From: an uncultured Cytophagia bacterium
GTDB taxonomy: Bacteria > Zhuqueibacterota > Zhuqueibacteria > Residuimicrobiales > Krinioviventaceae
Length of the DNA stretch: 37,490 nucleotides
Assembly: GCA_964414825.1 (NCBI GenBank)
Contig: CAYPZM010000004.1
Span: forward strand, 1 to 37,490
Direction of reading: 5' to 3'
Below the pieces are notes generated by a model. That model was not told the origin of the DNA, searched no databases, and saw nothing but the letters and a program-made list of their open reading frames with translations. Each line of letters opens with the position of its first letter. Position 1 is the stretch's first letter. Positions 9,392 to 34,157 of this stretch are shown here, in pieces. The translations under genes and the position numbers were made by a program.

Positions 9392-9420
9392 AAATTAAAA
9401 GGATAAACATGAAAACACAA
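9392..9420 (-). promoter_or_regulatory. Candidate sigma70-type promoter for the zinc-ribbon gene
   Basis: The minus strand reads TTGTGT, 17 nt, TAATTT, with the -10 element 36 nt upstream of the ATG and just downstream of the GNAT terminator. The promoter consensus of this organism is unknown. Confidence 0.3.
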
Positions 9421-9422
9421 GC

Positions 9423-9457
9423 AAAAAAAAAAGCCCGTTCCACTCGTGAAACGGGCT
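9423..9457 (-). terminator. Rho-independent terminator of the GNAT gene
   Basis: The minus strand reads AGCCCGTT..(loop)..AACGGGCT followed by about ten T (plus-strand A run 9423-9431), starting 21 nt after the GNAT stop codon (TGA 9478-9480). Confidence 0.8.
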
Positions 9458-9477
9458 CAATTAGGAGGTTAGCCATG

Positions 9478-10197: not shown

Positions 10198-10317
10198 AAT
10201 AACCACCTCTTTGTTCTTGTTTGTTTTATCTATATACTGAAAAATCTATAAAGTGCAACACATTTTTGGTAGAGTTATTTCTTTAGAAACTAATATTTTG
10301 CACTTTTGCATTTCGAT

Positions 10318-13194: not shown

Positions 13195-13301
13195 CGATAT
13201 CGTCCAGTTGTTTTAGAAACTAATTTTCGTTGCTGGTTTTAGCTGAGAAACACGATTTCATACGAGTTTAAAGTTACAATTTTATTTCATTCGTGTTTTT
13301 A

Positions 13302-14789
13302 TTATTTGATGGATGTCGTCCCCAAAAATTCGATCGACAACGACAGCAGCACATCCCAATAGGTATCATGAACATTGAGCTGATTTTCGACATGCTTGAC
13401 ATCCGAATAGGATACGCCAAAAGAGCCGTACAACCACCACAACGGCTGCCAGCGCGTCAAAAACCGGATGGTGTTTGAGGATTCAACAACACCAGTCGGG
13501 AACGACTCGGAATAGGTTTCTCCTGGCGGAATATCTCGCCACGGAGCGTCAAACGGATTGTGAACCCGGCCCTCGCCGCGGCGGCGTTTATCAAATTCAA
13601 GGCGACTGCGCCATTGCGGAACGGGGCGATATTCAAAGCCGGCAAGCCAGCGGTCAAAATCATTGCCCAGAAAATGGCCAATGGGATCATTGCGGTGCAG
13701 GTACTTTTCCCACGGTCCGCCTTGTCCGTTATACGTGCGATTGGTGACGCGGGTATATTCGGCAAAACAATCCAGTCCGGCAATGTTCAGCGGATCGGCC
13801 CAATTCACGCCCGCAAGCAGGCCATACTCGGCCGGTTCACCTTTATCGTCAATATTTTCATCTTCCAGTTGAATATCATCAATCAACACGCTGCCATACA
13901 CGGTGAGCAGCGGCAGCGGCATCCACATCACATCGGCGGCCGCCATAACATTGGCGATTTGCGGGCCGTTATGCTGCACTCCGGTGTAAAAAGTGACCGG
14001 ATTCAGCAATGCGAAATCGAGTCCAGCATCGGGTCCACCAAAAAGCGCGGTTTCGCTGATACCCAAACTTAAGTGCTTCAATGGGCGGAGTTCCAGTCGA
14101 TGGCCGCTCAGGTAACGGTTTTGAACGGAAGGTTGGTTTTTAACCTCATGCTCGGTTTTGTCCAGTGTTGCGGCAAAATAGGAAAATTTTATCCAGCGAT
14201 TTTGCCAGGCAAGATAAAGTTGATCCATAGGGCGACTGTTGGCGGAAATCATTAAAGACGCATCGCGGCCAGGCCCCCAGACCAGATAGTCGCGGCCGAA
14301 CTTTAGCTGGAAGGACTTGTAATCGATACCCAGATACGCCTGTTCCATGAATGCAGCAAAACCGCTTTGACGCTTGCCAATGTAGGTAGAGTCTTCATCC
14401 AGGCGATTATCAATATAAAATATAGTAAACAGATTAACATTTGGATGCAGTTTTCCGCCCACACTGGCACGCTGGATGGAGTGCAACCATGCTTTTTCTT
14501 GGGTTTGTTGAAGGGCATTATCAAGAATGGCCCATCCCAAAATCTGCTCGTGGGAATCGATAGAGGGAAGCTTTTGCAAAAGGTGTTGCGCCGGCCCGGA
14601 CGCCCAGGTGTTCAGCACTGTCTCTTGCAAAAGCTGTGCAGAATAGGGTCGTTCGAGCGGTGAAAACTGCCACAAAAGACCGCGGTAGTGGTAAAAACGA
14701 ATATCATCATCCAGCCAGTAATTAGGGCGAAGAGTTTGTGCGTTCAGAGAAATCGCGAGCAGTAAAAGAATAAAAAAGCGTTTTAGCAT
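13302..14789 (-). CDS. Outer-membrane beta-barrel protein, capsule-assembly Wzi family (tentative)
   Basis: Signal peptide MLKRFFILLLLAISLNAQT. ~495 aa, rich in aromatic/Gly beta-strand patterns. The segment FGRDYLVWGPGRDASLMISANSRPMDQLYLAW resembles the Wzi-family WGPG..SL.lS.N.RP motif. Last gene of the EPS operon, 2 nt after the priming transferase stop. Confidence 0.5.
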   Translation of the reverse strand: MLKRFFILLLLAISLNAQTLRPNYWLDDDIRFYHYRGLLWQFSPLERPYSAQLLQETVLNTWASGPAQHLLQKLPSIDSHEQILGWAILDNALQQTQEKAWLHSIQRASVGGKLHPNVNLFTIFYIDNRLDEDSTYIGKRQSGFAAFMEQAYLGIDYKSFQLKFGRDYLVWGPGRDASLMISANSRPMDQLYLAWQNRWIKFSYFAATLDKTEHEVKNQPSVQNRYLSGHRLELRPLKHLSLGISETALFGGPDAGLDFALLNPVTFYTGVQHNGPQIANVMAAADVMWMPLPLLTVYGSVLIDDIQLEDENIDDKGEPAEYGLLAGVNWADPLNIAGLDCFAEYTRVTNRTYNGQGGPWEKYLHRNDPIGHFLGNDFDRWLAGFEYRPVPQWRSRLEFDKRRRGEGRVHNPFDAPWRDIPPGETYSESFPTGVVESSNTIRFLTRWQPLWWLYGSFGVSYSDVKHVENQLNVHDTYWDVLLSLSIEFLGTTSIK

Positions 14790-14791
14790 AG

Positions 14792-16195
14792 TCAGTAGGC
14801 GTTTTTGTTCACCAATCCTTTTATGATGGTCATGACAATAATACGTAAATCAAACCAAAAAGACCAGTTTTCGATGTAATACAAATCAAATTTTACGCGT
14901 CGTTCTATGGACGTGTCGCCGCGCAATCCATTTACCTGGGCCCAGCCGGTGAGTCCGGTTTTGACTTGATGGCGAATCATATATTCCGGGATGTTTTCGC
15001 GAAATTTTCTGGCAAAATGAGGACGTTCGGGCCGCGGCCCTACAACGCTCATATCGCCGCGCAGCACATTCCAAAATTGCGGCAGCTCGTCAAGCGAGGT
15101 ACGGCGCAAAAAACGGCCCAGCGGAGTGACGCGATTGTCGTTTGCAATCGTCCAGAGCGTATCGCTTTCCTTGAGCTTGCCATTGCGCATGGTGCGAAAT
15201 TTGTAAATGCGAAACGGGCGTCCCTGCGTGCCCAACCGTTTTTGCACAAAAAACACTGGCCCTCGCGACGTGAGCTTTATCAAAATGGTTATCATTAAAA
15301 ACAACGGGCTGATAAACATCAGCACAATCACACTAAACACCATATCAAACGCGCGTTTTAGATAAACGTACTGCCAGGTATCCACGGGATTGGAGCGCAC
15401 GCCAATGAGCGGAATGCCGTTCAGGTTCAACACCTTGGCTTTTGGATGAATGAATTGAAACAAATCCGGGATAATGTTCACCTCAATGCCGGTATATTCG
15501 CACTCGCGCACCACATCGGCAATGTGTTTGGATTCGTTCATTCCCAAAGCCACAACCACACGATCGACGAGTTGGGTTTCCAAAACTTTGCGAATATCGC
15601 AAACTTTGCCCATCACGCGGTAGGGCAGCTCTTCGAGGGTTTCCACCGTATCGTCCAGAAAACCGAGCACGCGATACCCGGTTTCGCGATGCGTGGAAAT
15701 TTCATAAGCAAATCGACGTCCTGTGGCGCCGGCTCCGATGATCAGCAAGTTGCGTTTATTAAATCCTTGCGCCCGGGCATTGGACAAGATCAATCGAAAC
15801 GAATGGTGCCAAAATCCAAGCACAAAAAAAGCCAGCGGCGTAAAAATACCGAGCATGAGCCGCGAGACGTCGAACGATTTGAACAAAAATCCAACCGACG
15901 TATACAGGAAAAATGTCAATAACAGGGCCGTGCCAATAATCCGCCAGTCGGCCCATGGAATCTGGATGCGCTTGGATTTGTACAGCCCCAACAACTCCGC
16001 CAACACCATCCACAACAACAGCACCAGCAACAGATTGGGCGTATAACGCGATAATGACGGAATCGTCTCAACATCAGCAAAAGTTGGAAAAAACGTAAAA
16101 CGCACCTTGTAGGCGATTAAGAAACAGATCGTTACAAGAAGCACATCCAACAGGCGCCACAACACATTGAGAAAACTCGAACGTTCACGTAGCAT
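14792..16195 (-). CDS. Undecaprenyl-phosphate sugar phosphotransferase (EPS priming enzyme, WbaP/WcaJ type)
   Basis: N-terminal TM helices, a central Rossmann-like domain, and a C-terminal bacterial sugar transferase domain: [45 protein letters not shown]...[22 protein letters not shown]. Confidence 0.9.
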
Positions 16196-16206
16196 GCTGT
16201 GTCCCT

Positions 16207-17376
16207 TTAAAGAGAGGTGATTACGGCACGAAAGCGGTCTGCAATATGTGTGATGGGATAATTGGCCTCGGCGTAATGGCGCGCCTGTTGTCCCATGCGC
16301 ATACGCAGTTCCGGTTCTTGTTTGAGCTGCAATATTTTATGTGGAAGGGAAGTTTCTTCATCATTTGCTAACACCCAACCCGCGCCTATCTCTTCCGTTA
16401 ATGTAGCAGCATAATTAAATTTTGGCATCACCAACAACGATGGCCGCGCCGCGCAATAGGCAGACCACACTTTGGACGGCACACAAAATCGCCCTGCATT
16501 GGCGTGCAATAATGCAAGATGTACATCTCCGGTTGCTAAAATCTCGGGCAGGCGTTCGAAAGGTTGCAAAGGCAAAAGTAAAAGATTGTGCAGACCCAGT
16601 CGCGCTTTTTCCTGGCGCAGATGGGTCATGCCGACACCATCGGATATGACCAACAAGGTGATGTCCGTTTGATGTCGTAGATATTTAGCCGCATCGATCA
16701 CTATCTGCGGATTTTGTTTCATACCCAGCGTGCCGGAATAGAGGAGAACAAACTTGTCTTGCAAATCGTGTTGGCGACTAAATGTATTGTCCTTTGGCAA
16801 CACGGGCAGCGACTCGATGGGAGCCCAATTGCCGATCACATAAAAAGGACGCTCGATCTTCCATTCTTTCAACAGCTCTTGAAACTGCGGTGCAATACAA
16901 ATGATGGCATCGGACTCTGAAAGCAGGCGCCGCTCCAATCGGCGATAATGAAATCCTGCAACGCGGCCCAAAAGGCCCAGTTTCTCACTAAGAATGGTGT
17001 CCATGGCATCGCTCAGCACATCCTGCCACCAAAATACAAATCGAATACCGAGTGTACGGCAAGTTGCCAAAATTTGCCGTTGCGCTTCCAACGGCGTATT
17101 GGCGGACACCACGACATCCGGATGCAGCTCGCGCAATAGAGCGGCAACGCGCCGACCGTATTCGCGTTCCGCCCGCCAACGCTTGATAAAGTTAGCTTTG
17201 GCATTTGCCAGCTTTATATCCACAAAACAAACATTGCCGCCTTCTGAAAACGCACCTTGCGGACTGCCACTGGACGAGGAGTACACATGCGTCACGCGCT
17301 CGCCGCGGCGCAGCCATTCTCGACTCAGATCGATGGGAAAGGGGTAACCGCCATAGTCGTTGAGGAAGATGTGCAT
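16207..17376 (-). CDS. Glycosyltransferase family 4 (WcaI/WbuB-like)
   Basis: 389 aa. N-terminal MHIFLNDYGGYPF..L. C-terminal GT-B donor-binding region (FVLLYSGTLGMKQNP...ATGDVHLALL). Lies between the priming transferase and another GT4 with 3- and 11-nt gaps. Confidence 0.8.
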   Translation of the reverse strand: MHIFLNDYGGYPFPIDLSREWLRRGERVTHVYSSSSGSPQGAFSEGGNVCFVDIKLANAKANFIKRWRAEREYGRRVAALLRELHPDVVVSANTPLEAQRQILATCRTLGIRFVFWWQDVLSDAMDTILSEKLGLLGRVAGFHYRRLERRLLSESDAIICIAPQFQELLKEWKIERPFYVIGNWAPIESLPVLPKDNTFSRQHDLQDKFVLLYSGTLGMKQNPQIVIDAAKYLRHQTDITLLVISDGVGMTHLRQEKARLGLHNLLLLPLQPFERLPEILATGDVHLALLHANAGRFCVPSKVWSAYCAARPSLLVMPKFNYAATLTEEIGAGWVLANDEETSLPHKILQLKQEPELRMRMGQQARHYAEANYPITHIADRFRAVITSL

Positions 17377-17379
17377 ATT

Positions 17380-18564
17380 TTAATCGCTGTAAAAAGACCG
17401 GTAAAGATGTTGATAACGCTCCCCTAATAGATCGAGGTGATAGTTTTCCCGCATGTTGCGGTGCATCTCGTCACGATTCCACTTGTCAAGGAGGTTGTAA
17501 ATGTCTTGCATGAGCAGCTCAGGATGGTCAGAGTCGAATAGTTTGCCGAATTTTACATTTTCCCGAAAAACCGGGATATCACGGGCCAGTATCGGTACAC
17601 CGCAAGCTTGCGCTTCAATATTGGTTTTCCCAAAGGTTTCGGAACGAGAAAAATTTAAAAATAGATCAAAGGTATTAAACAAACGAGCCAATTGACGTGA
17701 ATTGGATACAAAAGAACTATAGGCGACAAATGAAAAGTGCCGCAGCCTCGTTCTCAAAGGTGTTGTCAATTCGCCCACAATCGTTATGGTAATTTGCCGT
17801 TGCTTTGTACGATCAAGATACTCGATCAAATTTAGTAATGTATCAAACCCCTTGTTAGTAAAATCGCTTTTTGCGACCACAAATCCAAGATTGATATTTT
17901 CGCTTCGATCTTTTTTAATAGGTCTGAAGGTATTGCAATCGATCCCTGGAGGTATAATATAAATTTCTTTGTCCTTTAAAAAGCTTTTTTTTAACTGATG
18001 GGCCATGAATTGGGAAAGCGCCACTACTTTGAGGTGGTTGAGCTCGGAAAAAGCATCTCGCTTTATCTCGAATAATTTGGAGGAACGATCCAAAAGCGTC
18101 GATGGATAGGTTTTTAAATTGGGACATGTTGCGCAATGCGACTGCCATTTTTCGCAATGCACGGGAATGCTGCAGCGACCGGTTATGGGCCAATAATCAT
18201 GTACCGTCAGGACAATTTGTTTGTCCGTTACGGATTCGAGCGATCGGATATCAAAGTAATAGCCCTGCAGATGGTGCAGGTGAAGAATATCAAATGATGG
18301 TGCAAGTTTATTAAATGTTCTAGTCCAGAACGGAGCGTAGATGCTATCAAAACCCAAAATTTTGGTTTTGAGCGCGTTAAAATAAATGGCAGCAGGCGGG
18401 AATTGGCTGTAAATTTGATTATTAACATTAATAAACTCTCGCGGGCACCACAAAAACGATTCGAATTCCTTCGTTTGATTTATGGCATTATGAATGGCGA
18501 GAACATGATTTCCCGTTCCGCCTTTGGTCAGGTTTGAAGTGATCCGTAGAACGCGTTTAGCCAT
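17380..18564 (-). CDS. Glycosyltransferase family 4
   Basis: MAKRVLRITSNLTKGGTGNHV is a typical GT4 N-terminus. C-terminal motif SRSETFGKTNIEAQACGVPILA (E..7..E region). ATG 18564 overlaps the GT9 stop as ATGGCTAA. The track start (GTG 18600) lies well inside the GT9 gene. Confidence 0.75.
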   Translation of the reverse strand: MAKRVLRITSNLTKGGTGNHVLAIHNAINQTKEFESFLWCPREFINVNNQIYSQFPPAAIYFNALKTKILGFDSIYAPFWTRTFNKLAPSFDILHLHHLQGYYFDIRSLESVTDKQIVLTVHDYWPITGRCSIPVHCEKWQSHCATCPNLKTYPSTLLDRSSKLFEIKRDAFSELNHLKVVALSQFMAHQLKKSFLKDKEIYIIPPGIDCNTFRPIKKDRSENINLGFVVAKSDFTNKGFDTLLNLIEYLDRTKQRQITITIVGELTTPLRTRLRHFSFVAYSSFVSNSRQLARLFNTFDLFLNFSRSETFGKTNIEAQACGVPILARDIPVFRENVKFGKLFDSDHPELLMQDIYNLLDKWNRDEMHRNMRENYHLDLLGERYQHLYRSFYSD

Positions 18565-19627
18565 AAGCCCGAATGCTATTGATGTGCTGTTGGACGGCAC
18601 GCAGAACCCGAGCCGTGCTAATTTTTTTTAAACAAGTGATATGCCAGCAGCTTGTTTGTTTGCATAATTCGCAGTCGACCGATTCTCGAAGAACGGTATG
18701 GCCTTCTCCGAACGGATACCACTTGCCCGGAATATCGCGTGCGGAAAATATCGCCACACAAGGCGTACCCACTGCGGCAGCGAGGTGCATAGTTCCAGTA
18801 TCGTTTCCCACATACAGATCACAGCGTCGCAGCAGCACGGCCGACTCGCGCACGCTTAATGCACCGGCGGCGTTCAAGCCTCTCCCCCATCGTTGTACAA
18901 GCGTGTTTCCGCATTCTGCATCTTCGTTGCCTCCCAGGATAATTGGGAAAATAGAATGTTCGTTCATCAGACGTTTGCCAACTTTATAAAATCGGCTCAA
19001 CGGCCACTGTTTGGACTGCATTTTTGAGCCGGGGCCAAAACCAATAATGAGAGTATCTTTAGGCAAGCCGCCAGCCTGACGCAGCCATTTTTTCACACGT
19101 GTTTGCTCTTGCTCTCCCAATTGCAAATCCATAGATGGATCTCGGGTGGAAATTCTATCCAGCTTGAGGCGATATAAGATAGCTTGATATTCTGGTGTAT
19201 CTTCGGAATGGCCGCTATTCACGCGCTCGAATCCATGAAATCCCCACGGATTTTTAATTCCTAAAAGTTTAAAGTAGATGTAATCTCTGCGAATCTGGAT
19301 TTCAGTACGATTGGACGGCACAAGATAAGCCACCGCATTAAAACGCTTCAGCATTAAAAATGGAAGCAGCAGGAGCATGGCACCAAAATGGACAATCTTG
19401 GGGCCTTGAGCGAGTTTGTAAAAAAAGAAACAGCGTGTGAAAAAATTTGTATTTTTAAATATTTCCGTAGAGGGAGTAAAGGATTGCCCGACAACTTTAT
19501 CACTTAACAAATAAAAAGAGGCTTGAGGAAACGCCTCGCGCAGCGCCCACAGTGACGGCACGACCATTAACGTATCGCCAATGTGACCGATGTGAAAGAT
19601 CAATATCCGTTTGGGGCGGTCGCTCAA
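18557..19627 (-). CDS. Glycosyltransferase family 9 (heptosyltransferase-like)
   Basis: RILIFHIGHIGDTLMVVPSLWALREAFPQASFYLLSD and CDLYVGNDTGTMHLAAAVGTPCVAIFS are classic GT9 motifs. The preferred start is TTG 19627, with AAGGAG 8 nt upstream and overlapping the sulfotransferase stop (TTGA). The track start TTG 19648 is the alternative. Confidence 0.8.
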   Translation of the reverse strand: MSDRPKRILIFHIGHIGDTLMVVPSLWALREAFPQASFYLLSDKVVGQSFTPSTEIFKNTNFFTRCFFFYKLAQGPKIVHFGAMLLLLPFLMLKRFNAVAYLVPSNRTEIQIRRDYIYFKLLGIKNPWGFHGFERVNSGHSEDTPEYQAILYRLKLDRISTRDPSMDLQLGEQEQTRVKKWLRQAGGLPKDTLIIGFGPGSKMQSKQWPLSRFYKVGKRLMNEHSIFPIILGGNEDAECGNTLVQRWGRGLNAAGALSVRESAVLLRRCDLYVGNDTGTMHLAAAVGTPCVAIFSARDIPGKWYPFGEGHTVLRESVDCELCKQTSCWHITCLKKISTARVLRAVQQHINSIRAYG

Positions 19628-20412
19628 TCTGCCAGCTCCTTGTGCCAACCTTCTTTCGCATAGCTCAATCGAACCAATGTCTCACCCGCGAGTTGATGAA
19701 AAAGCTCCGCACCCTCCCGGTCAAAATAGTTCTGCCAATCCCCAATGATGCCTTTGCGTTTGTTGGAAGTCACATCTTCTTTTCCTTTTTGCCGACGGGT
19801 TTGTTTTTCAAAGGAAAATTTTCTCACCGTATATTGCAGCAGCTCGTCATCAATAGGCTCGGAGGTTAATTTTTGGAGCAACGAGGTAAGGGCAGCCGCA
19901 GCATCTCGATTAAAATCTTCATAGCGAACGAGAATCACATTTTTGTTAAAGGCCCATTCATTTACATGATCTGGCCAATTCTGCCGACAACCTACAGGAT
20001 GTTTAAACCATTCAGCGAGAAATTCCGAAAAATTGGTTTTTGGATCATCCTTTGTTTTGAGCAAAGACGGGAACCGTTTTGCATAGTACGAGTCGGACGA
20101 AATACGTTTTAAAGCATAAAACATCATGGACACTGCGACATCGCGACCATCTCGAACGACGTAAATCGGTTTCGAATAGCGGCGATCAAATTTCCAGTGA
20201 TTGTGCAATATGCTTTGACAGGCAACGGGCAACAGGCTGTTTTTGGGAAAGGGGATTTGCAAATAATCAGACAAAACATGGGCGATCCAGGTGCCGCCGG
20301 AGCGCGGGTATTCGGTTACGTAATAAAAGGGAAACGTTTCGCCGTAGTGCAGCGCCAAAATGCGAGTGCCATGATTGGAGACACGTTTTAACTGCAACTG
20401 GAGTCTAGACAT
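19624..20412 (-). CDS. PAPS-dependent sulfotransferase (Sulfotransfer_1 type)
   Basis: All three canonical signatures are present: the 5'-phosphosulfate loop YPRSGGTW, the 3'-phosphate motif VVRDGRDVAVS, and the C-terminal RKGIIGDWQNYF. ATG 20412 overlaps the upstream stop as ATGTCTAG. Confidence 0.85.
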   Translation of the reverse strand: MSRLQLQLKRVSNHGTRILALHYGETFPFYYVTEYPRSGGTWIAHVLSDYLQIPFPKNSLLPVACQSILHNHWKFDRRYSKPIYVVRDGRDVAVSMMFYALKRISSDSYYAKRFPSLLKTKDDPKTNFSEFLAEWFKHPVGCRQNWPDHVNEWAFNKNVILVRYEDFNRDAAAALTSLLQKLTSEPIDDELLQYTVRKFSFEKQTRRQKGKEDVTSNKRKGIIGDWQNYFDREGAELFHQLAGETLVRLSYAKEGWHKELAD

Positions 20413-21913: not shown

Positions 21914-21921
21914 AGTGTCGC

Positions 21922-23280
21922 CTATGGAGATTTACTTATAAGAGACGTTATAGACGGATTCAATTTTACAGTTTTCAAGTTAAGGACTAGCAAACAGATA
22001 TTCCAAAACACCATTGAGATGGTTGATGCCAGAGCCGCACCCATTGCGCCCCATTTGGGGATAAGCAAAAAGCTGCAAGCGATGGAGATAAGTACGGCTA
22101 TCGCCATTATTTTTGCAGTCAAATTTTGGTATCCGGTTAAATTGAGCAAATACGATGCCGGTCCCATCAGTGATTTTGTAGCATGACCCACAACAAGCAC
22201 GAGCAAAACCACGTATCCCGCAATAAATTCTTTTCCAAACAAACCAAGTATCCATTTGCCAAAAACGATAATTACTACAGAAGAAAACAGGGTAAATCCA
22301 AATAAAATCTTTGATGCAAATGTCAACAATGACTGCAGCTCTTGCCGTTTTCCGGAATAGTAAAACTCGCTAATCATGGGCGCCGCTATGGAATTGACCG
22401 CCAGCAAAATAAAGCCAATTAGAATGATAATTCTGGATGCCGCCGAAAAAATGGCTACGCTTTCAGCACTATCATAAAATCCTAAAATCACAATGGCGGA
22501 TTGGTTCAGAATAATATTCATACTGTTCATCAGCAACATGGGCCAGGAGATGCTTAGCCACGCTTTTTTTTCATAATCGGAAGGATATTTTTTTAGCGAA
22601 TTTGGTAATTTTTCCACCAACAGAAAAGTGCCCACAACAAATGAGATCACCACAGCAATGAGTTGAGCAATCCATGCGTCGCGAGCATCGAACGGCGCAA
22701 CATAGTTAAAAGAAAAATAAATGACCAGGATTAGAATCAAAGGCCGAATGATGCCTTCGGGCAATTCCGCTCTTACGACATGTTTCAAACCTCGTAAACA
22801 CGATTGTCGTATCGCAGTTAGCGAAAAAAACGGTAACACCAACAACATAATAAAAAATGGTTTTACGATTTCAGATGAAATGGATGATCGCAAGAGATAT
22901 AAAACAATAGCCGCAATCAGCGAGATAACAATTGAGGCCAACAAAACGGTAGAAAATGAAAAATTAATGATCCCGCGAAATTTGGACCATTCGGAATGGA
23001 CTTTATATTCCGGCACAAACCGGAGCAACGAGGTTTCGAAACCGAGCTTGGCAAAAATGGAGAGGATGGTCATCCAGCTCAAAGCATAGGCGTAAATGCC
23101 ATAGTCCTTCGGCCCCAGTTTGCGTGCCAGAACAACTTGAGCGAAAAACAGCAAAGCAAAGCCAACTCCTTTGATAACAAACGAACCCGTGGACGCTTTG
23201 AGAAAAAATCGAAGAGAGGAGTCGGGCAAGTGATGTGAAATGAAGCGTCGCCAGGAAAGCGCGGATTTTAACTTTATCAT
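21922..23280 (-). CDS. wzx: Wzx-type oligosaccharide flippase (MOP superfamily polysaccharide biosynthesis protein)
   Basis: 452 aa with 12-14 predicted TM helices. N-terminal region GSFVIKGVGFALLFFAQVVLARKLGPKDYGIYAYALSW is typical of the polysaccharide-biosynthesis (Wzx/RfbX) family. ATG 23280. Confidence 0.75.
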   Translation of the reverse strand: MIKLKSALSWRRFISHHLPDSSLRFFLKASTGSFVIKGVGFALLFFAQVVLARKLGPKDYGIYAYALSWMTILSIFAKLGFETSLLRFVPEYKVHSEWSKFRGIINFSFSTVLLASIVISLIAAIVLYLLRSSISSEIVKPFFIMLLVLPFFSLTAIRQSCLRGLKHVVRAELPEGIIRPLILILVIYFSFNYVAPFDARDAWIAQLIAVVISFVVGTFLLVEKLPNSLKKYPSDYEKKAWLSISWPMLLMNSMNIILNQSAIVILGFYDSAESVAIFSAASRIIILIGFILLAVNSIAAPMISEFYYSGKRQELQSLLTFASKILFGFTLFSSVVIIVFGKWILGLFGKEFIAGYVVLLVLVVGHATKSLMGPASYLLNLTGYQNLTAKIMAIAVLISIACSFLLIPKWGAMGAALASTISMVFWNICLLVLNLKTVKLNPSITSLISKSP

Positions 23281-23301
23281 TTTATCCCATCACCCAAACA
23301 C

Positions 23302-24717
23302 TTAACGCGGATACGCATCGTTTATGGGCGACTCGAGAATAGGCGCAATGAGAATATGCCAATTTTCTTCCACTTCGCCTTCTCGAACTTTTCTGTCATC
23401 TTTATTTTTGCGCGTCGCGTCGTACTCGGACAGTCCGCCCCAGTAATTATGGGTGGCGTCAATATCCAAATAATAAAACAAACTGCGCGAATAGGCATAC
23501 AGCGCAAACAAATCACCAGGTTGAGAAAAGTTGTTATAATTGATAATGGGCGTCGAGGCGTGATGCATTTCTACCAAATGTTGCGCGCAGTTTTCGACCG
23601 TATTTTTTGTTAAAGTATAAATTGCCTCGCGTTCAAACGTAAAATTGTAAACACCAATATCGCAGTTGGCAATATAATTGTACGTCACATCACCAACTCC
23701 GCCGTAAACAATGCTCATACCTTTGGCGCAATCATAAAAGCAGTTATCGGAAATAGTGACCTCGCAAGCATTATTGGTCACACCCACGGATTCATCATTA
23801 AATTGAAGATCATAAAATAAACTGTGATGAACCGTTCCCTCGGAAATACTTTCCACAGAAATTCCAAAGCGGCTTTTAAGAAAGTGACTGTTTGTAATTT
23901 CAAACTGACATTCCTGCGTTAAAAATATGCCAACCGAGCTGATGTTTTCAAACTGGCAGTGGCTCAAATTCAACGATGCACTTTTAACCGTAATGGCATC
24001 AGTCGCATTGTTAAACCTGACCCAACTGAGCACGCCGTTGCCATTCAGGTCTACCCCTAACCAGCTACGCAGCGATTCAACATCATTCACATCGTTTGAG
24101 GTAAAATAGATCATATCCCTTGAAGTTCCAAAGCAGTTTAATTGTCCCTCGCAGCGAATGCGTTGTTTTCCGGTAAATCGAATCGTAGCCCCTTTGTCAA
24201 TCAGCAATGTGCTTCCCTTGGGCACCGTCACATCGCCGGTAACGATAACATGTTGAAACGCCGGCCACTCTGTATAAATATCCAGCACACCAGCAACTCG
24301 AATTTCGGGAAATAGGGTGATGGAGGACAAATCCTGGGTGTCGGAGATATCATAAATAGTGCGCCAGCCATAACCGTTTTTTTCTACAACCACGTTGTAG
24401 TCGCCCTGCGGAATATCGACAAATTCATAATAGCCTTCCGCATCGGTTTTGGCGGTAAACGCGGGCTCGTGCAAGCGGTGGTCGAACAATGCGGACTGAG
24501 TCAGTTCAAATCCAACCGTGGGAAACTGTTGTTGCAAACGCTGCAAGGTCGTGTCAACGTCCACGGTGTGGTATAGCGAGACGGAAATATCAGAGCTCTC
24601 GGTGCCTCCCTGAATGTGGGCGCTCCCGGAAATCGTCATCGTTTGCGGTTGTGTGAGCTGACGTGTGCAGGAGAGCCACAGCAACATCAACAAAAGAAGA
24701 GCAAATTTTCTAAACAT
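23302..24717 (-). CDS. Secreted/lipoprotein with CarboxypepD_reg-like domain and right-handed parallel beta-helix repeats
   Basis: Signal peptide MFRKFALLLLMLLWLSC (Cys candidate lipidation site). DAEGYYEFVDIPQGDYNVVVEKNGYGW is a carboxypeptidase-regulatory-like fold. It is followed by repeated ~22-aa N/G/I-rich units (ITNSHFLKSRFGISV, VTISDNCFYDCAKGMSIV, YNYIANCDIGVYN), consistent with PbH1 repeats. AGGAGA lies 6 nt before ATG 24717. Confidence 0.7.
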   Translation of the reverse strand: MFRKFALLLLMLLWLSCTRQLTQPQTMTISGSAHIQGGTESSDISVSLYHTVDVDTTLQRLQQQFPTVGFELTQSALFDHRLHEPAFTAKTDAEGYYEFVDIPQGDYNVVVEKNGYGWRTIYDISDTQDLSSITLFPEIRVAGVLDIYTEWPAFQHVIVTGDVTVPKGSTLLIDKGATIRFTGKQRIRCEGQLNCFGTSRDMIYFTSNDVNDVESLRSWLGVDLNGNGVLSWVRFNNATDAITVKSASLNLSHCQFENISSVGIFLTQECQFEITNSHFLKSRFGISVESISEGTVHHSLFYDLQFNDESVGVTNNACEVTISDNCFYDCAKGMSIVYGGVGDVTYNYIANCDIGVYNFTFEREAIYTLTKNTVENCAQHLVEMHHASTPIINYNNFSQPGDLFALYAYSRSLFYYLDIDATHNYWGGLSEYDATRKNKDDRKVREGEVEENWHILIAPILESPINDAYPR

Positions 24718-24757
24718 GAAACGTCTCCTGAGAATTGCAAGGTGTCCTTGATCGGAC

Positions 24758-26533
24758 TTAGAAATAAAATAAATAAATCAAGGTGACGGACAAGGTGCCA
24801 ATAATAAGATTCATGGGAATGCCGATCTTTAAAAAGTCGGTGAATTTGTAACCTCCTGGGCCATAAACCATCAAATTCGTTTGGTATCCGATCGGCGTGG
24901 CAAAACTGGCGGACGCAGCAATGGCCAGAGCAATAAAAAAGGGCCGCGGATCCAGATCCGCCTGTTGAGTGATGGCGAGCGCCACAGGAAACACAAGCGC
25001 TGCTGCCGCGTTGTTGGTAATAATTTCAGTATAAATACTGGCAATGAGATAGGTACCGGCAAGCAGTCCGAGGGGACCAATGGTGCCCAGCAGCAAAATT
25101 AGCTTTTCCGCAAGAAAACCAGCCACGCCGGAATTGACCATGGCTTTGGAAATACCAAAAGCGGACGCGATTACCAAAAGTACGTTCCACTCGATACTTT
25201 TGCGCGCTTCTTCCGGCGAAATGCATTTACCCACCACCAACACAACGGACGCTAAACAGACCGCCACCAAAATGGGCAGCAGGCCGGTGGCCATTACCAA
25301 AATCATCGTCGACAACACTGCAAGCGAAAACCAGGAATACCATTGCGGTTTGGACGGGATGCCCGGAGTTTTGGTGACGAGATAAAAATCGCGAGAGTGA
25401 TACCATTTTTGCGTAAAATCGTGCTTGGCCAAAATGAGCAACGTATCGCCGCCGCGCAACACAATATCGCCGATTTTTTTTTGAATCCGTTCACCACTTC
25501 TGTGGATCGCCAGAATTACCGCATTATAACGCGTTCGAAACTGGCTGTTGCGCACATTGCGGCCAATGAGCGGCGAATTGGCGGAAATGACCACTTCAAA
25601 GGTGCCCATTTCATCCGAATTGTAGCTTTTCAAGTTGAATGAAGCATCTTTGATGATTGACAAGCCGTGTGTTTTCTGCAGCTCGATAATCGTATCGGGC
25701 AAGCCGGTAAAGAACAGGCGGTCGCCGAGCTGAATTCGTTCATTCGGGCCGACCGACACCATCAAATCCCTGTTGCGCTCTATTTGAAAAAGATACAATC
25801 CTTTCAAGTGCCGCAGTCCCGCTTCCTCAATCGTTTGACCGATGTGACGGTATTCGGGCTCGACTTTCATTTCCACGACAAATTCTCGAGTGTGCTCATC
25901 CAACTGAATGATGGGCGATTTACGATCGGGCAGCAACCGATGTCCAAATACAGCCACAAGAGTGATGCCGAAAATCGCAACGGGCACTCCCACTTTGGAG
26001 ATTTCGAAAAAAGAAAAGCCGGGCATACCGCTTTCGATCATGAGACCGTGCACCACCAAGGTCGTACTGGTGCCAATGAGCGTACAAATGCCGCCCAAAA
26101 TTGAAGCATAGGAGAGGGGAATCATAAATTTTGAAATCGAGTATTCATTTTTCCGCGTCCAGTTGCGGATAACCGGAATGAGCATGGCAACAATGGGGGT
26201 ATTGTTAAAAAATGCGGAAACCGCAGACACCGGAAACAGGAAGCGCAGCAATTTGGTTGATAGTCTGCCACCTTTGCTAAACAGGCGGTCGCCCACAGTG
26301 TTTAATACGCCGGTCTGCTGCAAAGCGGCGGCAACAATAAATAAAAACAGGACCGTAAGCATACCGTGGTTTGAAAATCCGGCAAATGCTTCTTCAACGG
26401 AAATGACGCCGCCAATGGTCAACAATATCAGTACCGAAAAGATGATGACGTCTGGCTCGAAAATTTCTCGTATTAAAAAAAACGTCATCAACAGAATAAG
26501 AACCGAGGTGTACAGAAACTCAAAGTCGATCAT
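24758..26533 (-). CDS. SLC13/DASS-type anion permease with two central TrkA-C (RCK_C) domains
   Basis: 591 aa. N- and C-terminal polytopic halves flank two RCK_C-like repeats (VEMKVEPEYRHIGQTIEEAGLR...GDRLFFTG and VVISANSPLIGRNVRNSQFRTRYNAVILAIHR..GDTLLILA). Confidence 0.85.
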   Translation of the reverse strand: MIDFEFLYTSVLILLMTFFLIREIFEPDVIIFSVLILLTIGGVISVEEAFAGFSNHGMLTVLFLFIVAAALQQTGVLNTVGDRLFSKGGRLSTKLLRFLFPVSAVSAFFNNTPIVAMLIPVIRNWTRKNEYSISKFMIPLSYASILGGICTLIGTSTTLVVHGLMIESGMPGFSFFEISKVGVPVAIFGITLVAVFGHRLLPDRKSPIIQLDEHTREFVVEMKVEPEYRHIGQTIEEAGLRHLKGLYLFQIERNRDLMVSVGPNERIQLGDRLFFTGLPDTIIELQKTHGLSIIKDASFNLKSYNSDEMGTFEVVISANSPLIGRNVRNSQFRTRYNAVILAIHRSGERIQKKIGDIVLRGGDTLLILAKHDFTQKWYHSRDFYLVTKTPGIPSKPQWYSWFSLAVLSTMILVMATGLLPILVAVCLASVVLVVGKCISPEEARKSIEWNVLLVIASAFGISKAMVNSGVAGFLAEKLILLLGTIGPLGLLAGTYLIASIYTEIITNNAAAALVFPVALAITQQADLDPRPFFIALAIAASASFATPIGYQTNLMVYGPGGYKFTDFLKIGIPMNLIIGTLSVTLIYLFYF

Positions 26534-26779
26534 TTGCGATTCCTATATAAATGCCAAAGGTGCTTGCGCTCGTAAAGTTCTGTCATCCTGGGCTTTCGCC
26601 CCGTCACTTACAGATAACTCCATCTGCACCACTGTTGGCCTTTGTAAAACGTGCCCTATTTCTTGCATATTGCGGAATTTGATTTCCCATACGCCAAAGG
26701 GGATCTGGAGGAAGTGTTTTTGACGGGGAATTCCCCCGTTTGTTAGAAAACATACCACAAACTCAAAGTTCAACGCGGT

Positions 26780-27286
26780 TCAAGCGATTTTTTCCAGCTT
26801 TACATTTTTGGCATTGAGCAGCACGGATTTACCAATCGATGAGATATGGATAACAAAATATCGTTCACCGCGTTCTTCCAATATCTGGCCTTCGTAATCC
26901 AATAAAAGGCCGCTGGAGATACGTACGTGATCGCCGGTCAGGAGTCCCGGCCGCACATCAAGCTCAAAATCGGTCGAAAGTAACATACGGATTCTTTCCA
27001 GCTCCGATTCCTGCACTGGCATGGGTTCATTGTTAAAACCAACAATTCGAACCACGCTGGGCACTTGGAGGACTTGAAAGCGATCGACATATTGAATTTC
27101 ACAAAAAATATAGCTGGGGAAAAGTGGAGCCTCTACCCAACGTTTGCGATCTTTCCACTGATTTAATGTTTTGCGCAATGGCAAATAGTGATGAATCCCG
27201 TAACCATCCAGATATGTTTTAACTTTTTTTTCATGCCGCGGTTTTGTAACAAAAGCATACCAACGTTTTTCGCGGTGAGAGATCAA
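26780..27286 (-). CDS. UpxY-like NusG-family transcription antiterminator (locus-specific NusG paralog)
   Basis: KRWYAFVTKPRHEKKVKTYL..HYLPL..LNQWKDRKRWVEAPLFPSYIFCEI is an NGN domain of the UpxY/RfaH type. KOW-like GDHVRISSGLLLDYEGQILE. TTG start at 27286 with GGAGGA 5 nt upstream. Not in a secE-nusG-rplK context. Confidence 0.75.
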   Translation of the reverse strand: MISHREKRWYAFVTKPRHEKKVKTYLDGYGIHHYLPLRKTLNQWKDRKRWVEAPLFPSYIFCEIQYVDRFQVLQVPSVVRIVGFNNEPMPVQESELERIRMLLSTDFELDVRPGLLTGDHVRISSGLLLDYEGQILEERGERYFVIHISSIGKSVLLNAKNVKLEKIA

Positions 27287-27415
27287 TACTTCCTCCTCAA
27301 TGTTGCTATTGGCTGTCGGTCAAACCCAAGAAATAGGAATATGTCAATACAAGCCAAAACGGTCAAGCTGACATGGTGCAAAATAACGTTCAACAGCAGA
27401 CAATCATCCGCTAAT

Positions 27416-29782
27416 TTATATTTTATCGCCCATACTTCGAGCTTTATTTTTCTTACGTTTACGATCACCATCGTCCGTGTAATAGTAATAATATTCATGG
27501 TGATAGTGCGCGCCATAAAAATTGGTCGAAGACACACCATTCAACAACAGACCAAGCAGAGGCGCTTCTACTCGCTTGAGCTGTTCGGCCGCCATAACAG
27601 CCGCACTGCGTTGCGTTTGAGCCGCGCGAACGACCAGAACGACGCCATCGACAAATCGCGCCAAGACCGATGGATCGGTCACGGCAATAACCGGCGGCGC
27701 ATCAATTAAAATGACTGAAAATTTTTCGCGAAGCTGATTCAATAACTCGCGCATACGTTCCGAGCCCAACAATTCCGCCGGATTTGGCGGATTGATTCCG
27801 CAGGTTAACAGATGCAAATTGGGGACTTGTTCAACGCGGGTAATAATCTCGGAGATATCTTTTTGGCCAACCAGCACATTGGTTAAGCCAGGCTGTTGGT
27901 CAACCTGAAATAGCTTGTCCAGCATGGGGCGCCGCAAATCCGCATCAATCAGCAGCGTGCTGGTACCCATTTGCGCAAAGGTAATAGCCAGATTAGCGAC
28001 CGAAGTGGACTTGCCTTCTCGCGGGCCGCTGCTGGTCATCAAAATGACGTGTTTTGGATTTTCCGGCGCCGTAAACAAGATATTTGTACGCAAGCTGCGA
28101 TAGGCTTCGGAAACCGGCGAGCGCGGTTTCAGGTGCGTTACCAGGCGTTCGTTAATGGCAAAGGCCTCGGGGTCCTGCATGCGAGCCAGCTTGCTCATGA
28201 TGCCGTTTTCGTGTTCAGGTTTGATATTGGGAATGGTGGCGATAAGCGTGGAACCGAGCGGCTCCAGGTCTTCCATGGTGCTAATGCTATCGTCCATATA
28301 ATCCATGGCAAAGGCAATGGCAACACCGAGCCCCAGACCCAATAATAGACCCAGAACCAGGTTTAATTTTTTCTTGGGCGCAATAGGTTCTTTGGGCGCT
28401 TTGGCCGCATCGATAATGCGCACATTGCCCAACTGACCCACTTCGGTAATACGAGATTCCTGGTATTTCTCCTGCAGCATGACGTACAGTTTTTCTGCTA
28501 CCTGCGACTGACGCGTTAATCGCGCTAATTGCAATTTTTTCGCTGGCAGCGTTTCCAGCTCGGCGTTATAATCTTGAACGATTCTGCCATAAATTTCAAC
28601 TTTGGGCTCTAGCGCCCGGATTTCCGTTTCAACTTCAATTTTGCTGCTGAACAACGAGCCGGAAATTTGCGCCGGATCGACAAATTGATTAGCGGCAATG
28701 GATTTCACATCTTCTTTAAACTGGTTTTTTAACGCATTAATTCGGCCTTGCAATGTTTCAATCTCTTTGCGCGTATAGCGCGTCTGCCCTTTTTGAATCG
28801 CTTCGGATTGATACATGGCCAGCCGCGCCTCTTGTTGGGCTATTTTTTTGGTAAACTCTTCCAGCGCTGTATTTTTAGAGATGGTTTCAATATCAAAATT
28901 TGCGTTTTGCGCGGCCAGTTCGGAATCGATGTATTCCAAACGCTGACGAGCGGCCTCCAAATCCGTGCGTGCGGCATTGTACAAGGTTTCAAACTCGGCA
29001 ATTTTGGAAACCAGCTCAGAGGTTTCCCGGTCCAAGGCCACAACATTTGCGGATTCCTGATACGCCTTGAGCTCCTCCTCCGAAGCTTTTAACTCGCGTT
29101 CGTATAATTCGGATTGTTCTTCCAAAAATTCTTTCAACTGGCGCACTTCGGCCTGGCTCTCTTCTTTATTGATATTTTCGTACACCTCGGCAATGGCATT
29201 GGCGACATAATAGGCTTCAAACGGATTGTTGGCTTTGAATTTTATTTCCATCATATCGGTATTGCGGATATGTCGCACGCTGGTGGCTTCCCGCAAATCC
29301 TTGACATTTTCATCAAAAACATCTTCTTCGGACCACTCTTCTTGGCCCCCAAACGCTACCAGTTTTGCCAGAGAAAAACCGTGCCTCACCGTATCAGCGC
29401 GTTCCAGGATTTCCAATCGATGCGCATAGGCCGATGTTTTGAGATTGCGAATGACACGTTCGGCCAGGGTTCGACTTTTAAGAATCTCCACCTGGTTGTT
29501 GATCATGGTTTCCTGCTGCATCATTGACGTAAAATCAAAAATTGATTGACTGACGCCATCCTGCCCTTCCAGCATCAAGCGCACACCCGCTTCGTAAACC
29601 GGCTCTTTGGTAAAGGTGAGGATCACGGCGCTAAAAAATACGACCACAAAAGTAACCAGAATAGCAAAGCGGCCTTTGTAAAACACGCGCATATAATCGC
29701 GCCAGGTCACGCGTCGTTCGGCCAACGACGAGCCGGTATATTGGCCATCTTCTTCGGAAGATTGTAATTTATAATCAGCCAT
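27416..29782 (-). CDS. wzc: Polysaccharide co-polymerase / BY-tyrosine autokinase (PCP-2a, Wzc/GumC-like)
   Basis: 788 aa. N-terminal Wzz-like domain with a TM helix (FAILVTFVVVFFSAVILTF), a long coiled-coil periplasmic region and a second TM helix. Cytoplasmic P-loop kinase (MTSSGPREGKSTSVANLA, LLIDADLRRP, VILIDAPP). C-terminal Tyr cluster YGAHYHHEYYYYYTDD. Confidence 0.9.
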   Translation of the reverse strand: MADYKLQSSEEDGQYTGSSLAERRVTWRDYMRVFYKGRFAILVTFVVVFFSAVILTFTKEPVYEAGVRLMLEGQDGVSQSIFDFTSMMQQETMINNQVEILKSRTLAERVIRNLKTSAYAHRLEILERADTVRHGFSLAKLVAFGGQEEWSEEDVFDENVKDLREATSVRHIRNTDMMEIKFKANNPFEAYYVANAIAEVYENINKEESQAEVRQLKEFLEEQSELYERELKASEEELKAYQESANVVALDRETSELVSKIAEFETLYNAARTDLEAARQRLEYIDSELAAQNANFDIETISKNTALEEFTKKIAQQEARLAMYQSEAIQKGQTRYTRKEIETLQGRINALKNQFKEDVKSIAANQFVDPAQISGSLFSSKIEVETEIRALEPKVEIYGRIVQDYNAELETLPAKKLQLARLTRQSQVAEKLYVMLQEKYQESRITEVGQLGNVRIIDAAKAPKEPIAPKKKLNLVLGLLLGLGLGVAIAFAMDYMDDSISTMEDLEPLGSTLIATIPNIKPEHENGIMSKLARMQDPEAFAINERLVTHLKPRSPVSEAYRSLRTNILFTAPENPKHVILMTSSGPREGKSTSVANLAITFAQMGTSTLLIDADLRRPMLDKLFQVDQQPGLTNVLVGQKDISEIITRVEQVPNLHLLTCGINPPNPAELLGSERMRELLNQLREKFSVILIDAPPVIAVTDPSVLARFVDGVVLVVRAAQTQRSAAVMAAEQLKRVEAPLLGLLLNGVSSTNFYGAHYHHEYYYYYTDDGDRKRKKNKARSMGDKI

Positions 29783-29819
29783 ACTTGTTCTTTCACTGCT
29801 CTTTTAGATAAAATGCCTA

Positions 29820-30320
29820 CTAATCACGCCGCGCATACCACTGCGCCAAATAGATTGCCTGCACAATCATGGCGATGCGAAATCCAAGCTCGAATATTTT
29901 GTTCACCAGGTGAAACGTGGTTCCGGAAACCACCACCGTATCTCCAGGCAGTAGCATGGGATTTTCTACAAGGTCGCCCGTGTCGACAAAATCTTTTACA
30001 TCCACATCAATAACCTGGCTGGTATCACCCTCGGCTTCAACACGCACGACTCGAATGCGTTTGATGCGCGCATCTTCGCGCGGGCCGCCGGCGTACGACA
30101 ACAGCGACACCAGGTCGGTTTCCAGCGGCACCATGTACTGTCCGGGAACGTTAACAAACCCCCAAACATTCACCGCCATTAGCACTTGATCTTGATTACC
30201 AAGGAAATATTGAGCGGCACGACCGGCATTGCCGGCGGAAGAAATGGCTTGTGCAAACGCTATTTGGTTAAACGCCCAAAAGATGCACACAATAAGAATA
30301 AATCTCGATGCCCGTTTCAT
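29820..30320 (-). CDS. Minimal outer-membrane polysaccharide export (OPX/Wza-like) protein: signal peptide, single SLBB domain, C-terminal hydrophobic helix
   Basis: Signal peptide MKRASRFILIVCIFWAFNQIAFAQA. SLBB-like VNVWGFVNVPGQYMVPLETDLVSLLSYAGGPRED...LLPGDTVVV. C-terminal IFELGFRIAMIVQAIYLAQWY. First gene of the EPS run, directly upstream of wzc. Confidence 0.65.
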   Translation of the reverse strand: MKRASRFILIVCIFWAFNQIAFAQAISSAGNAGRAAQYFLGNQDQVLMAVNVWGFVNVPGQYMVPLETDLVSLLSYAGGPREDARIKRIRVVRVEAEGDTSQVIDVDVKDFVDTGDLVENPMLLPGDTVVVSGTTFHLVNKIFELGFRIAMIVQAIYLAQWYARRD

Positions 30321-34156: not shown

Positions 34157-34157
34157 G

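Follow-up and report, generated by a model that had tools for sequence, protein, structure and literature searches.

We analysed a 37,490-nt stretch of genomic DNA (contig CAYPZM010000004.1, positions 1 to 37,490; hereafter, the window), in which a sulfotransferase gene lies inside a polysaccharide locus of the Wzx/Wzy type. From the genes and their relatives, the cluster probably makes a Wzx/Wzy polysaccharide whose repeat unit is sulfated by this enzyme, which is of the type that uses 3'-phosphoadenosine 5'-phosphosulfate (PAPS). Sulfated polysaccharides are valued biomaterials and were long held to be nearly absent from bacteria beyond cyanobacteria; if the proposed account is true, the capacity to make them extends to the uncultured KSB1 lineage. 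The host appears to be an uncultured KSB1-like bacterium of the FCB group, as judged from the best matches of GcvT and of a permease encoded in the locus; the best named matches of GcvT are 68-69% identical in KSB1 and 64-67% identical in Calditrichota. A literature search for KSB1 together with sulfotransferase returned no papers.

The locus forms an uninterrupted run of 13 minus-strand genes from 30320 to 13302 in the open reading frame (ORF) list of the window. All 13 ORFs of the original prediction are present, and its three junction strings were recovered letter for letter on that strand (ATGTCTAG at 20405-20412, TTGA at 19624-19627, and ATGGCTAA at 18557-18564). The two longer spacers measure 129 nt (27287-27415) and 246 nt (26534-26779); the remaining junctions in the run range from -44 to +40 nt. 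Most of the module labels proposed for these genes were borne out by Pfam and NCBIfam profile searches, with Sulfotransfer_1, Bac_transf, and Glyco_transf_9 all matched, and three of the 13 genes that had been left unnamed encode an UpxY-family antiterminator, an SLC13 permease, and a beta-helix lipoprotein. The claim of a complete Wzx/Wzy set stands for the priming transferase, the glycosyltransferases (GTs), Wzx, Wzc, and the Wzi-like protein, whereas no match in sequence or structure was found for the Wzy candidate, and the protein for outer-membrane polysaccharide export (OPX) is a 166-amino-acid (aa) form with an SLBB domain only.

The sulfotransferase gene (19624-20412, minus strand) encodes a predicted cytoplasmic protein of 262 aa that matches Sulfotransfer_1 (PF00685) with 66.4 bits against a cut-off of 22 bits (E = 3.4e-18), and the three PAPS-binding motifs attributed to it earlier, PRSGGTW, VRDGRDVAVS, and RKGIIGDWQNYF, were all found. 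In an alignment of 40 homologues, S38, W42, H72, R87-D91, S95, R219, and G224 are invariant or nearly so; these conserved residues correspond to the PAPS binders of animal sulfotransferases (SULTs), with H72 at the expected position of the catalytic histidine. Alignment with mouse estrogen sulfotransferase pairs R87 and S95 with 3'-phosphate-binding residues of that enzyme and matches the C-terminal RKGIIGDW exactly. A model computed with AlphaFold2 from the homologue alignment (pLDDT 95.7) confirms the predicted SULT alpha/beta fold, with Foldseek probabilities of 1.0 to SULT1E1, SULT2A1, and Teg12 at a TM-score of ~0.6; the structural matches are the cytosolic SULTs, which are the best, and the glycopeptide sulfotransferases Teg12/14. 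The sequence contains neither a signal peptide nor a transmembrane (TM) segment, and the enzyme is therefore expected to act in the cytoplasm. Its dN/dS value is 0.11 against L088, the locus that holds the closest relative of the enzyme, and is similar to those of the neighbouring genes; on this comparison the sulfotransferase is under purifying selection. The start of the gene overlaps the Wzy candidate gene by 8 nt and its stop overlaps the GT9 gene, and these overlaps suggest translational coupling. Transfer of sulfate from PAPS to a carbohydrate acceptor is a prediction from the setting of the gene.

Few close homologues of the sulfotransferase turned up, all of them in metagenomes. The locus is conserved gene for gene in L001/L002 (a KSB1 metagenome-assembled genome, MAG, which carries RLD14008.1), L003/L004, L088, and L089, with the shared order OPX, Wzc, UpxY, SLC13 permease, beta-helix protein, Wzx, 500-aa membrane protein, sulfotransferase, GT9, GT4, GT4, priming transferase, and Wzi; where the contig is long enough, the loci of the relatives continue with Fkp and then a GNAT acetyltransferase. 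The closest relative, L090 (ENA ERZ10759774 NODE_911), lies in the same RseP-GcvT-ComB-FtsK-LolA neighbourhood, and the locus occupies a fixed chromosomal site after lolA. The two ends of the L090 locus follow the window closely, with 85-89% identity over the left flank (OPX, Wzc, UpxY, and permease) and 74-88% over the WcaI-like GT4 and the priming transferase (74% for the GT4 itself), whereas the centre (11863-21002 of L090) is replaced: the beta-helix protein and Wzx are 42 and 31% identical, respectively, and the GT set is another one that includes a GT2 enzyme. The replacement cassette encodes two other sulfotransferases (284 and 282 aa), which have intact PAPS motifs and lie between GT genes, and a family-less membrane protein of its own with at least nine TM segments, so that one or more sulfotransferases, together with the permease, are retained in both cassette variants seen. 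The beta-helix protein occurs in all syntenic loci and yet is only 31-42% identical among them, and thus appears to vary with the cassette. By the L090 comparison, the locus behaves as a serotype-variable capsule locus, the centre of which (beta-helix protein, Wzx, Wzy, sulfotransferase, and some GTs) is, on sequence evidence, a swappable serotype-like cassette.

The association with polysaccharide genes extends well beyond these relatives. A scan of one genome per GTDB species yielded at least 437 relatives of the sulfotransferase, the best 80 of which were examined by searching the flanking 10 kb in both directions with iterated profiles of the window proteins. These 80 come from Planctomycetota (mostly Phycisphaerae), Myxococcota, Acidobacteriota, Bacteroidota, Cyanobacteriota, Desulfobacterota, Gemmatimonadota, Actinomycetota, and Proteobacteria. 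Polysaccharide markers were detected in 65 of the 80 loci, Wzx in 55, and GT4 enzymes in 58; Wzx is directly adjacent to the sulfotransferase relative in 14 loci and shares its strand in 46 of 55. For a random 20-kb stretch, the chance of containing Wzx is a few percent, as estimated from typical gene counts rather than computed. PAPS-synthesis motifs were found within 10 kb in approximately 10 of the 80 loci, some of the relatives lying beside cysDNC or sat. In a Gemmatimonadota MAG (L072), Pfam matches in one direction comprise a CysQ-like protein, Sat with adenosine 5'-phosphosulfate (APS) kinase, an SLC13 permease, Sulfotransfer_3, Wzx, Wzy_C, the sulfotransferase homologue, GT4, and WecG; in the cultured flavobacterium Winogradskyella aurantia WNB302 (L054), they comprise a CysQ-like protein, CysC, CysD, CysN, Wzx, the sulfotransferase homologue, two GT4 enzymes, and Wzy_C. 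The occurrence of this clade in polysaccharide loci of many phyla suggests that bacteria of sediments and soils are a much broader source of sulfated polymers, which would bear on the cycling of carbon and sulfur and on how the many degraders rich in sulfatases evolved. The survey also supplies a pool of candidate carbohydrate sulfotransferases for engineering, and it points to cultured carriers, among them W. aurantia WNB302, Winogradskyella sp. 3972H.M.0a.05, Desulfonema magnum 4be13, and Nocardioides jejuensis.

Wzx/Wzy clusters bearing sulfotransferases are already known (synechan, Vibrio, and Cobetia). The statement in the original prediction that genetically defined pathways of this kind are rare in bacteria was accordingly too strong, since the synechan (xss), Vibrio sp. 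KMM 8419, and Cobetia clusters have been published and relatives of the enzyme occur in polysaccharide loci of many phyla. Synechan of Synechocystis sp. PCC 6803 is the nearest system that has been validated: a Wzx/Wzy cluster with two sulfotransferases on plasmid pSYSM makes a product whose sulfation was confirmed chemically and genetically (PMC8205485), and the cluster has been reconstructed in Synechococcus (PMC13125312). The window locus would work alike without being a member of that system. In both, sulfotransferase genes lie among GT genes, and both encode a flippase, a Wzy or Wzy candidate without a family match, and a polysaccharide co-polymerase with a kinase-like domain. However, xss is under XssQ/R/S control instead of UpxY, lacks a permease, has its OPX gene elsewhere, and belongs to a host of another phylum; a search of plasmids with the window sulfotransferase (tblastn) did not recover pSYSM, and the Wzy candidate showed no similarity to the synechan Wzy, XssF. 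The polysaccharide loci of Vibrio sp. KMM 8419 and Cobetia marina KMM 1449 combine sulfotransferases with sulfate-activation functions, and the authors of those studies regard PAPS genes that lie together with sulfotransferase genes as a hallmark of the synthesis of sulfated polysaccharides (PMC11641403, PMC11766843). The Vibrio capsular polysaccharide follows the ABC-transporter (Kps) route with cysNDC in the cluster, whereas the window has Wzx/Wzy, no PAPS-synthesis genes, and a putative sulfate importer instead. A 2024 review lists six bacterial genera with sulfated polysaccharides, as well as the fucose-sulfating KpsS in Mesorhizobium (PMC11625862). In addition to what those systems offer, the window locus has an in-locus permease, cassette exchange, a leader element, and an uncultured phylum as its source.

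Three other systems resemble parts of the locus. Colanic acid (wca) of Enterobacteriaceae shares the WcaJ-type primer for glucose-1-phosphate followed by a WcaI-like GT4, the supply of GDP-fucose, and the Wzx/Wzy/Wzc/OPX set, but it is unsulfated, obtains GDP-fucose de novo via gmd/fcl rather than by Fkp salvage, and has a full-length Wza and Wzb; among the window proteins compared with it, WcaJ alone passes a curated cut-off. Polysaccharide operons of Escherichia coli are under the control of the NusG paralogue RfaH and its ops element, which recalls UpxY in the window. In Bacteroides capsule loci, UpxY governs a long operon and fucose salvage by Fkp feeds surface glycans, whereas the UpxY gene of the window follows those of OPX and Wzc instead of standing first, no UpxZ was seen, and the host is KSB1-like. 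The export proteins recall the short-OPX/beta-barrel translocons of Myxococcus (EpsY/EpsX and WzaX/WzpX), and Wzi-barrel homologues have been noted beside short OPX genes (PMC9601211, PMC9603273). The likeness, known here from sequence alone, is that the window OPX is shorter than 200 aa, has no recognisable Wza_C that would span the outer membrane, and is co-encoded with a barrel. The systems differ in that no Poly_export domain could be detected in the window OPX, whose C-terminus is a hydrophobic helix, and in that the barrel is of the Wzi family rather than AlgE/PgaA-like (of the 18-strand type in Myxococcus).

In the proposed pathway, all components of which are encoded on the minus strand, the WcaJ-type transferase (14792-16195) would prime undecaprenyl phosphate with glucose-1-phosphate. 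It scores 505 bits to the TIGR03023 WcaJ equivalog (cut-off 411 bits) and 249 bits to Bac_transf, and also contains CoA_binding_3; its WcaJ type is the reason for predicting that the transferred group is glucose-1-phosphate. Three GTs may then extend the lipid-linked primer to approximately a tetrasaccharide, which may include fucose from Fkp. These are the WcaI-like GT4 of the conserved right flank (16207-17376; NF007640, 127 bits, below the cut-off of 276 bits), a second GT4 for which the best named match in Pfam and NCBIfam is WcaC, a weak one (17380-18600), and the GT9 enzyme whose gene overlaps the sulfotransferase stop (18557-19648; Glyco_transf_9, 76.9 bits) and whose scores lie far under the heptosyltransferase equivalog cut-offs. 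The sulfotransferase would add one sulfate ester to the lipid-linked unit, and would do so on the cytoplasmic face because PAPS exists only in the cytoplasm. The sulfated unit would be flipped by Wzx (21922-23280; Polysacc_synt, 73.4 bits vs. a cut-off of 28.2 bits), which has approximately 12 hydrophobic segments. Sulfation of the repeat unit in the cytoplasm before flipping had been proposed for this locus earlier; the proposal finds support here and is strengthened, as a prediction, by the synteny, by the clade-wide association with Wzx, GT, and PAPS genes, and by the SLC13 permease in the locus.

Polymerization of the sulfated units would fall to the family-less 502-aa membrane protein encoded at 20405-21913. 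The protein has at least 10 TM segments, with a loop of ~140 aa between TM8 and TM9, and is a Wzy candidate by position, topology, and cassette-specific divergence. Neither the candidate nor its orthologues (n = 5) matched any Pfam family even at E ≤ 10; among 80 remote homologues, four weakly match O-ag_pol_Wzy and one matches Wzy_C, and the family comprises 384 representative sequences without a Pfam model. Its AlphaFold2 model (pLDDT 92.8) found no neighbour in the PDB by Foldseek (best E = 0.34), nor did a profile search of PDB sequences.

Export or anchoring of the polymer would involve Wzc, the short OPX protein, and the Wzi-type barrel. Wzc (27416-29782) is a predicted co-polymerase and BY-type tyrosine autokinase with Wzz, GNVR, and AAA_31 domains, a TIGR01007 score of 189 bits (cut-off 108 bits), and a C-terminal YYYYY tail. 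The OPX protein (29820-30320) has a signal peptide and one SLBB domain (Pfam SLBB_2/SLBB); no Poly_export match was found in Pfam, and the matches to EpsY and pepcterm_export are weak. A stretch resembling a polysaccharide export sequence, YFLGNQDQVLMAVNVWG, was recognized in it by visual reading alone. The protein ends in a hydrophobic or amphipathic helix of ~30 residues (FHLVNKIFELGFRIAMIVQAIYLAQWYARRD), candidate roles for which are a membrane anchor and a Wza-like pore helix. The length of 166 aa recurs in L001, L089, and L090, the L090 copy being 88% identical. The Wzi-family outer-membrane beta-barrel (13302-14789), which has a signal peptide, matches Caps_assemb_Wzi with 110.9 bits over profile positions 67-382 only, and may serve either to anchor the capsule or as a porin that partners the short OPX protein. 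The beta-helix lipoprotein (23302-24717; Beta_helix/NosD domains, lipobox LSC) is probably a periplasmic polymer-specific glycanase, lyase, or epimerase. Searches with the beta-helix and Wzi-like proteins against PDB sequences gave nothing useful. In L089, Wzc and Wzx were called in pieces, at 492-2904 (429 + 213 + 163 aa) and 7051-8503 (222 + 270 aa), for which frameshifts, assembly errors, or a decaying locus could account.

On the supply side, the SLC13 permease may import sulfate, PAPS would be made by genes elsewhere in the genome, and transcription would be driven by UpxY, probably via a leader element before the permease gene, with read-through to a terminator after the GNAT gene. As a reasonable guess, the product is a fucose-containing heteropolysaccharide with a repeat of about four sugars and one sulfate; fucose would make up at most some of the polymer, the logic being that of colanic acid and not of a fucan.

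Several observations weigh against the account given above. The host is uncultured, and the polymer is known here from its genes. The nearest solved structures to the sulfotransferase are small-molecule SULTs at a TM-score of ~0.6, and the fold is therefore silent on a carbohydrate acceptor. In pairwise BLASTP comparisons, the enzyme is not detectably related to XssA of the synechan system (E = 1.8) and is related to XssE marginally (E = 0.006, in the motif region only). One homologue (L007) lies in a context that is not an obvious polysaccharide export locus. The Wzy assignment was made from position and topology. Neither sat/cysDN nor cysC lies within the 37.5 kb of the window. Finally, homologues of the permease at 65-68% identity occur in unrelated contexts (L091 and L092) in what is a very large family, and the Joint Genome Institute (JGI) names that family di/tricarboxylate transporter, so that sulfate as the permease substrate is a deduction.

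The alternative that fares best, and to which we give a substantial though lesser chance, leaves sulfation in place and concerns the form of the product: the sulfated glycan would be a cell-anchored capsule, an O-antigen-like glycan, or a glycoprotein glycan rather than a free exopolysaccharide (EPS). The UpxY-controlled loci of Bacteroides are capsule loci. The serotype-like exchange of the cassette recalls surface antigens. In group 1 systems of E. coli, moreover, a Wzi-family protein is the lectin that anchors the capsule (PMC9601211). Against this alternative, neither a WaaL ligase nor an oligosaccharyltransferase was found in the window, and the presence of Wzc and OPX defines a high-molecular-weight export system; between capsule and released EPS, the sequence cannot separate.

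The second alternative concerns the permease (24758-26533, minus strand), which combines an SLC13/DASS core with two TrkA_C domains. Its Pfam scores are 242 bits to CitMHS and 37.4 bits to Na_sulph_symp (cut-off 27 bits), and it carries a signature of the Na+/sulfate-symporter type, ASASFATPIGYQTNLMV, which matches the PS01271-type pattern exactly. The DASS signature is also found in carboxylate carriers. It is conceivable, and somewhat doubtful, that the protein carries di/tricarboxylates or another anion, e.g., for a non-carbohydrate substituent, and that sulfate enters by other transporters. The contexts of the 65-68% identical homologues and the JGI family name agree with this, as do the top Pfam match being CitMHS and a score of 108.7 bits to the TIGR00785 DASS model, under its cut-off of 198.6 bits. 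On the other side, a permease 42% identical over its full length directly follows Sat/APS kinase and CysQ in L072, and the L091 homologue lies near genes for an Rrf2 regulator and SufE/cysteine desulfurase. The gene is kept, with 89% identity to L090, in the flank that is conserved beside a variable centre in which sulfotransferases are always present. Algal SAC1/SLT sulfate transporters and sensors, for which bacterial homologues have been noted (PMC8780407), have the same architecture, with two TrkA-C domains added to an SLC13 core. We therefore regard the import of sulfate that feeds PAPS synthesis as the likelier function of the permease.

As had been noted, neither PAPS-synthesis genes nor a Wzb-type phosphatase was found in the window, and motif scans of the window for APS kinase, Sat, CysD, and CysN were negative. 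PAPS supply, putatively from elsewhere in the genome, would be the main link left in the sulfation model; sat has been reported in nearly all KSB1 clades (PMC9012183).

It is considerably less probable that the sulfotransferase modifies another target (a glycolipid, lipid, metabolite, or nucleotide sugar), with co-regulation as the only tie to the locus and an unsulfated exported polymer. The L007 homologue outside a clear export locus fits such a role, and small-molecule SULTs, together with the glycopeptide sulfotransferases Teg12/14 and StaL, are its best matches in structure and sequence. Bacterial PF00685/PF13469 enzymes, moreover, include the glycolipid sulfotransferases Stf0 and NodH (PMC11625862). 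Against it stand the coupling suggested by the gene overlaps with the Wzy candidate and GT9, the position of the sulfotransferase kept in five related loci, the occurrence of relatives near Wzx/GT genes in 65 of the best 80 genomes across many phyla, and the alternative L090 cassette, which again has sulfotransferases between GT genes.

WcaI is the first fucosyltransferase of colanic acid. Although the WcaI-like GT4 is conserved beside the primer, Fkp lies immediately downstream in synteny with L003 and L089, and KpsS of M. loti sulfates fucosyl residues (PMC11625862), the fucoidan-like, fucose-rich, and heavily sulfated polymer of the original prediction is very improbable: the locus has a single sulfotransferase per repeat of about four sugars, a glucose-1-phosphate primer, and GT4/GT4/GT9 enzymes with no dedicated fucosyltransferase family above cut-off (the WcaI-family score being far under it), and the repeat-unit chemistry of Wzx/Wzy yields heteropolymers rather than a sulfated fucan backbone.

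Regulation of the locus appears to centre on the UpxY protein, a transcription antiterminator of the NusG-paralogue type (26780-27286, minus strand) that matches NF033644 with 123.8 bits (cut-off 100 bits) as well as Pfam NusG. In relatives, the 246-nt spacer that separates the UpxY gene from the permease gene shows little conservation, save for an 18-nt leader element, TCTGTAAGTGACGGGGCG (26597-26614, minus strand), which lies 64 nt upstream of the permease start codon and is identical in L001-L004, L089, and L090. The element occurs once in the window against 0.01 occurrences expected, and a scan of JGI metagenome contigs found it in exact form in 105 metagenome stretches, with an extended consensus of ~24 nt, TCTGTAAGTGACGGGGCG[AG]AGCTGT. 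Among loci with a callable ORF, the ORF downstream of the element is NusG/UpxY-like in 32 of 59 and the upstream ORF is Wzc-like in 26 of 54; other downstream genes are likewise polysaccharide-related. The element partly resembles the E. coli ops element, GGCGGTAGCGTG, and is most simply read as a candidate ops-like recruitment site for the NusG paralogue. On that reading, the putative sulfate permease and the biosynthetic genes would come under antitermination control. A structured RNA was considered and rejected: for 33 sequences, RNAalifold returned a 6-bp hairpin that showed no covariation, which favours a sequence element. No Rfam family matched anywhere in the window at gathering score, and at permissive E-values the leader element was unmatched both in the window and in 12 metagenome loci.

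A further reading, which we put forward tentatively and hold to be rather unlikely in full, joins these features into a dedicated 'sulfo-capsule' system that the lineage would keep at one chromosomal site: flanks conserved for export, regulation, and sulfate import would surround an exchangeable cassette, each version of which would supply one or more sulfotransferases of its own, with UpxY gating at a new ops-like element. If it is true, surface polymers would differ in their sulfation pattern and amount to sulfo-serotypes, and the leader element would mark polysaccharide operons controlled by NusG paralogues in many soil and sediment bacteria.

The 13 tightly packed genes had been described as a single operon. 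They probably give more than one transcript, and the unit probably extends past 13302. The former doubt arises from the promoter-like region and the conserved leader element between the UpxY and permease genes, and the latter from the synteny of fkp and the GNAT gene in relatives and from the strongest terminator following the GNAT gene. The functional unit thus probably runs from 30320 to approximately 9431. Fkp (10318-13194, minus strand) is a bifunctional fucokinase/GDP-fucose pyrophosphorylase by Pfam, with an NF009948 score of 609.7 bits, below the cut-off of 721 bits, and its gene also directly follows Wzi in L003 and L089; the GNAT acetyltransferase gene (9478-10206, minus strand) is syntenic with it. 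The probable end of the unit is an intrinsic-terminator-like hairpin with a 12-bp stem followed by T8 (9431-9458, minus strand), the strongest such site in 9000-28900. In a scan for sigma-70 promoters and terminators, counts equalled the shuffled expectation, and this terminator (9458-9431) was the sole outlier. A 159-aa ORF without a family match (9063-9542, minus strand) is probably not a real gene, because it overlaps the hairpin. Slightly overlapping genes for a GMC-family FAD oxidoreductase and a short-chain dehydrogenase (6743-9056, plus strand) converge on the end of the polysaccharide unit.

Other genes of the window include one of the 2-phosphosulfolactate phosphatase (ComB) family (33425-34213, minus strand), which lies between gcvT and ftsK and is kept there in L090; it is a further enzyme connected with sulfur, but it belongs to the housekeeping block, and no link to the polysaccharide locus is evident. 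Two tandem paralogous secreted proteins (708-3311 and 3380-6343, plus strand) have a beta-propeller of the arylsulfotransferase (ASST) type, which is PAPS-independent, together with fn3, CBM4_9, and a C-terminal sorting domain of the type IX secretion system. The first of them matches PDB entry 9kf4, named 'Sulfotransferase', with E = 7e-30; a literature search on 9KF4 returned no papers. The ASST-like proteins were considered as sulfators of the polymer and set aside, as there is no supporting synteny. Among plasmids, the sole matches to the window sulfotransferase by tblastn (~26% identity) are on Sinorhizobium meliloti pSymB (L094; CP073680.1, 778788-795501), in a region that also encodes a second sulfotransferase, an OPX-family export protein, a PIG-L deacetylase, and a GT4 enzyme and thus constitutes a polysaccharide locus with sulfotransferases.

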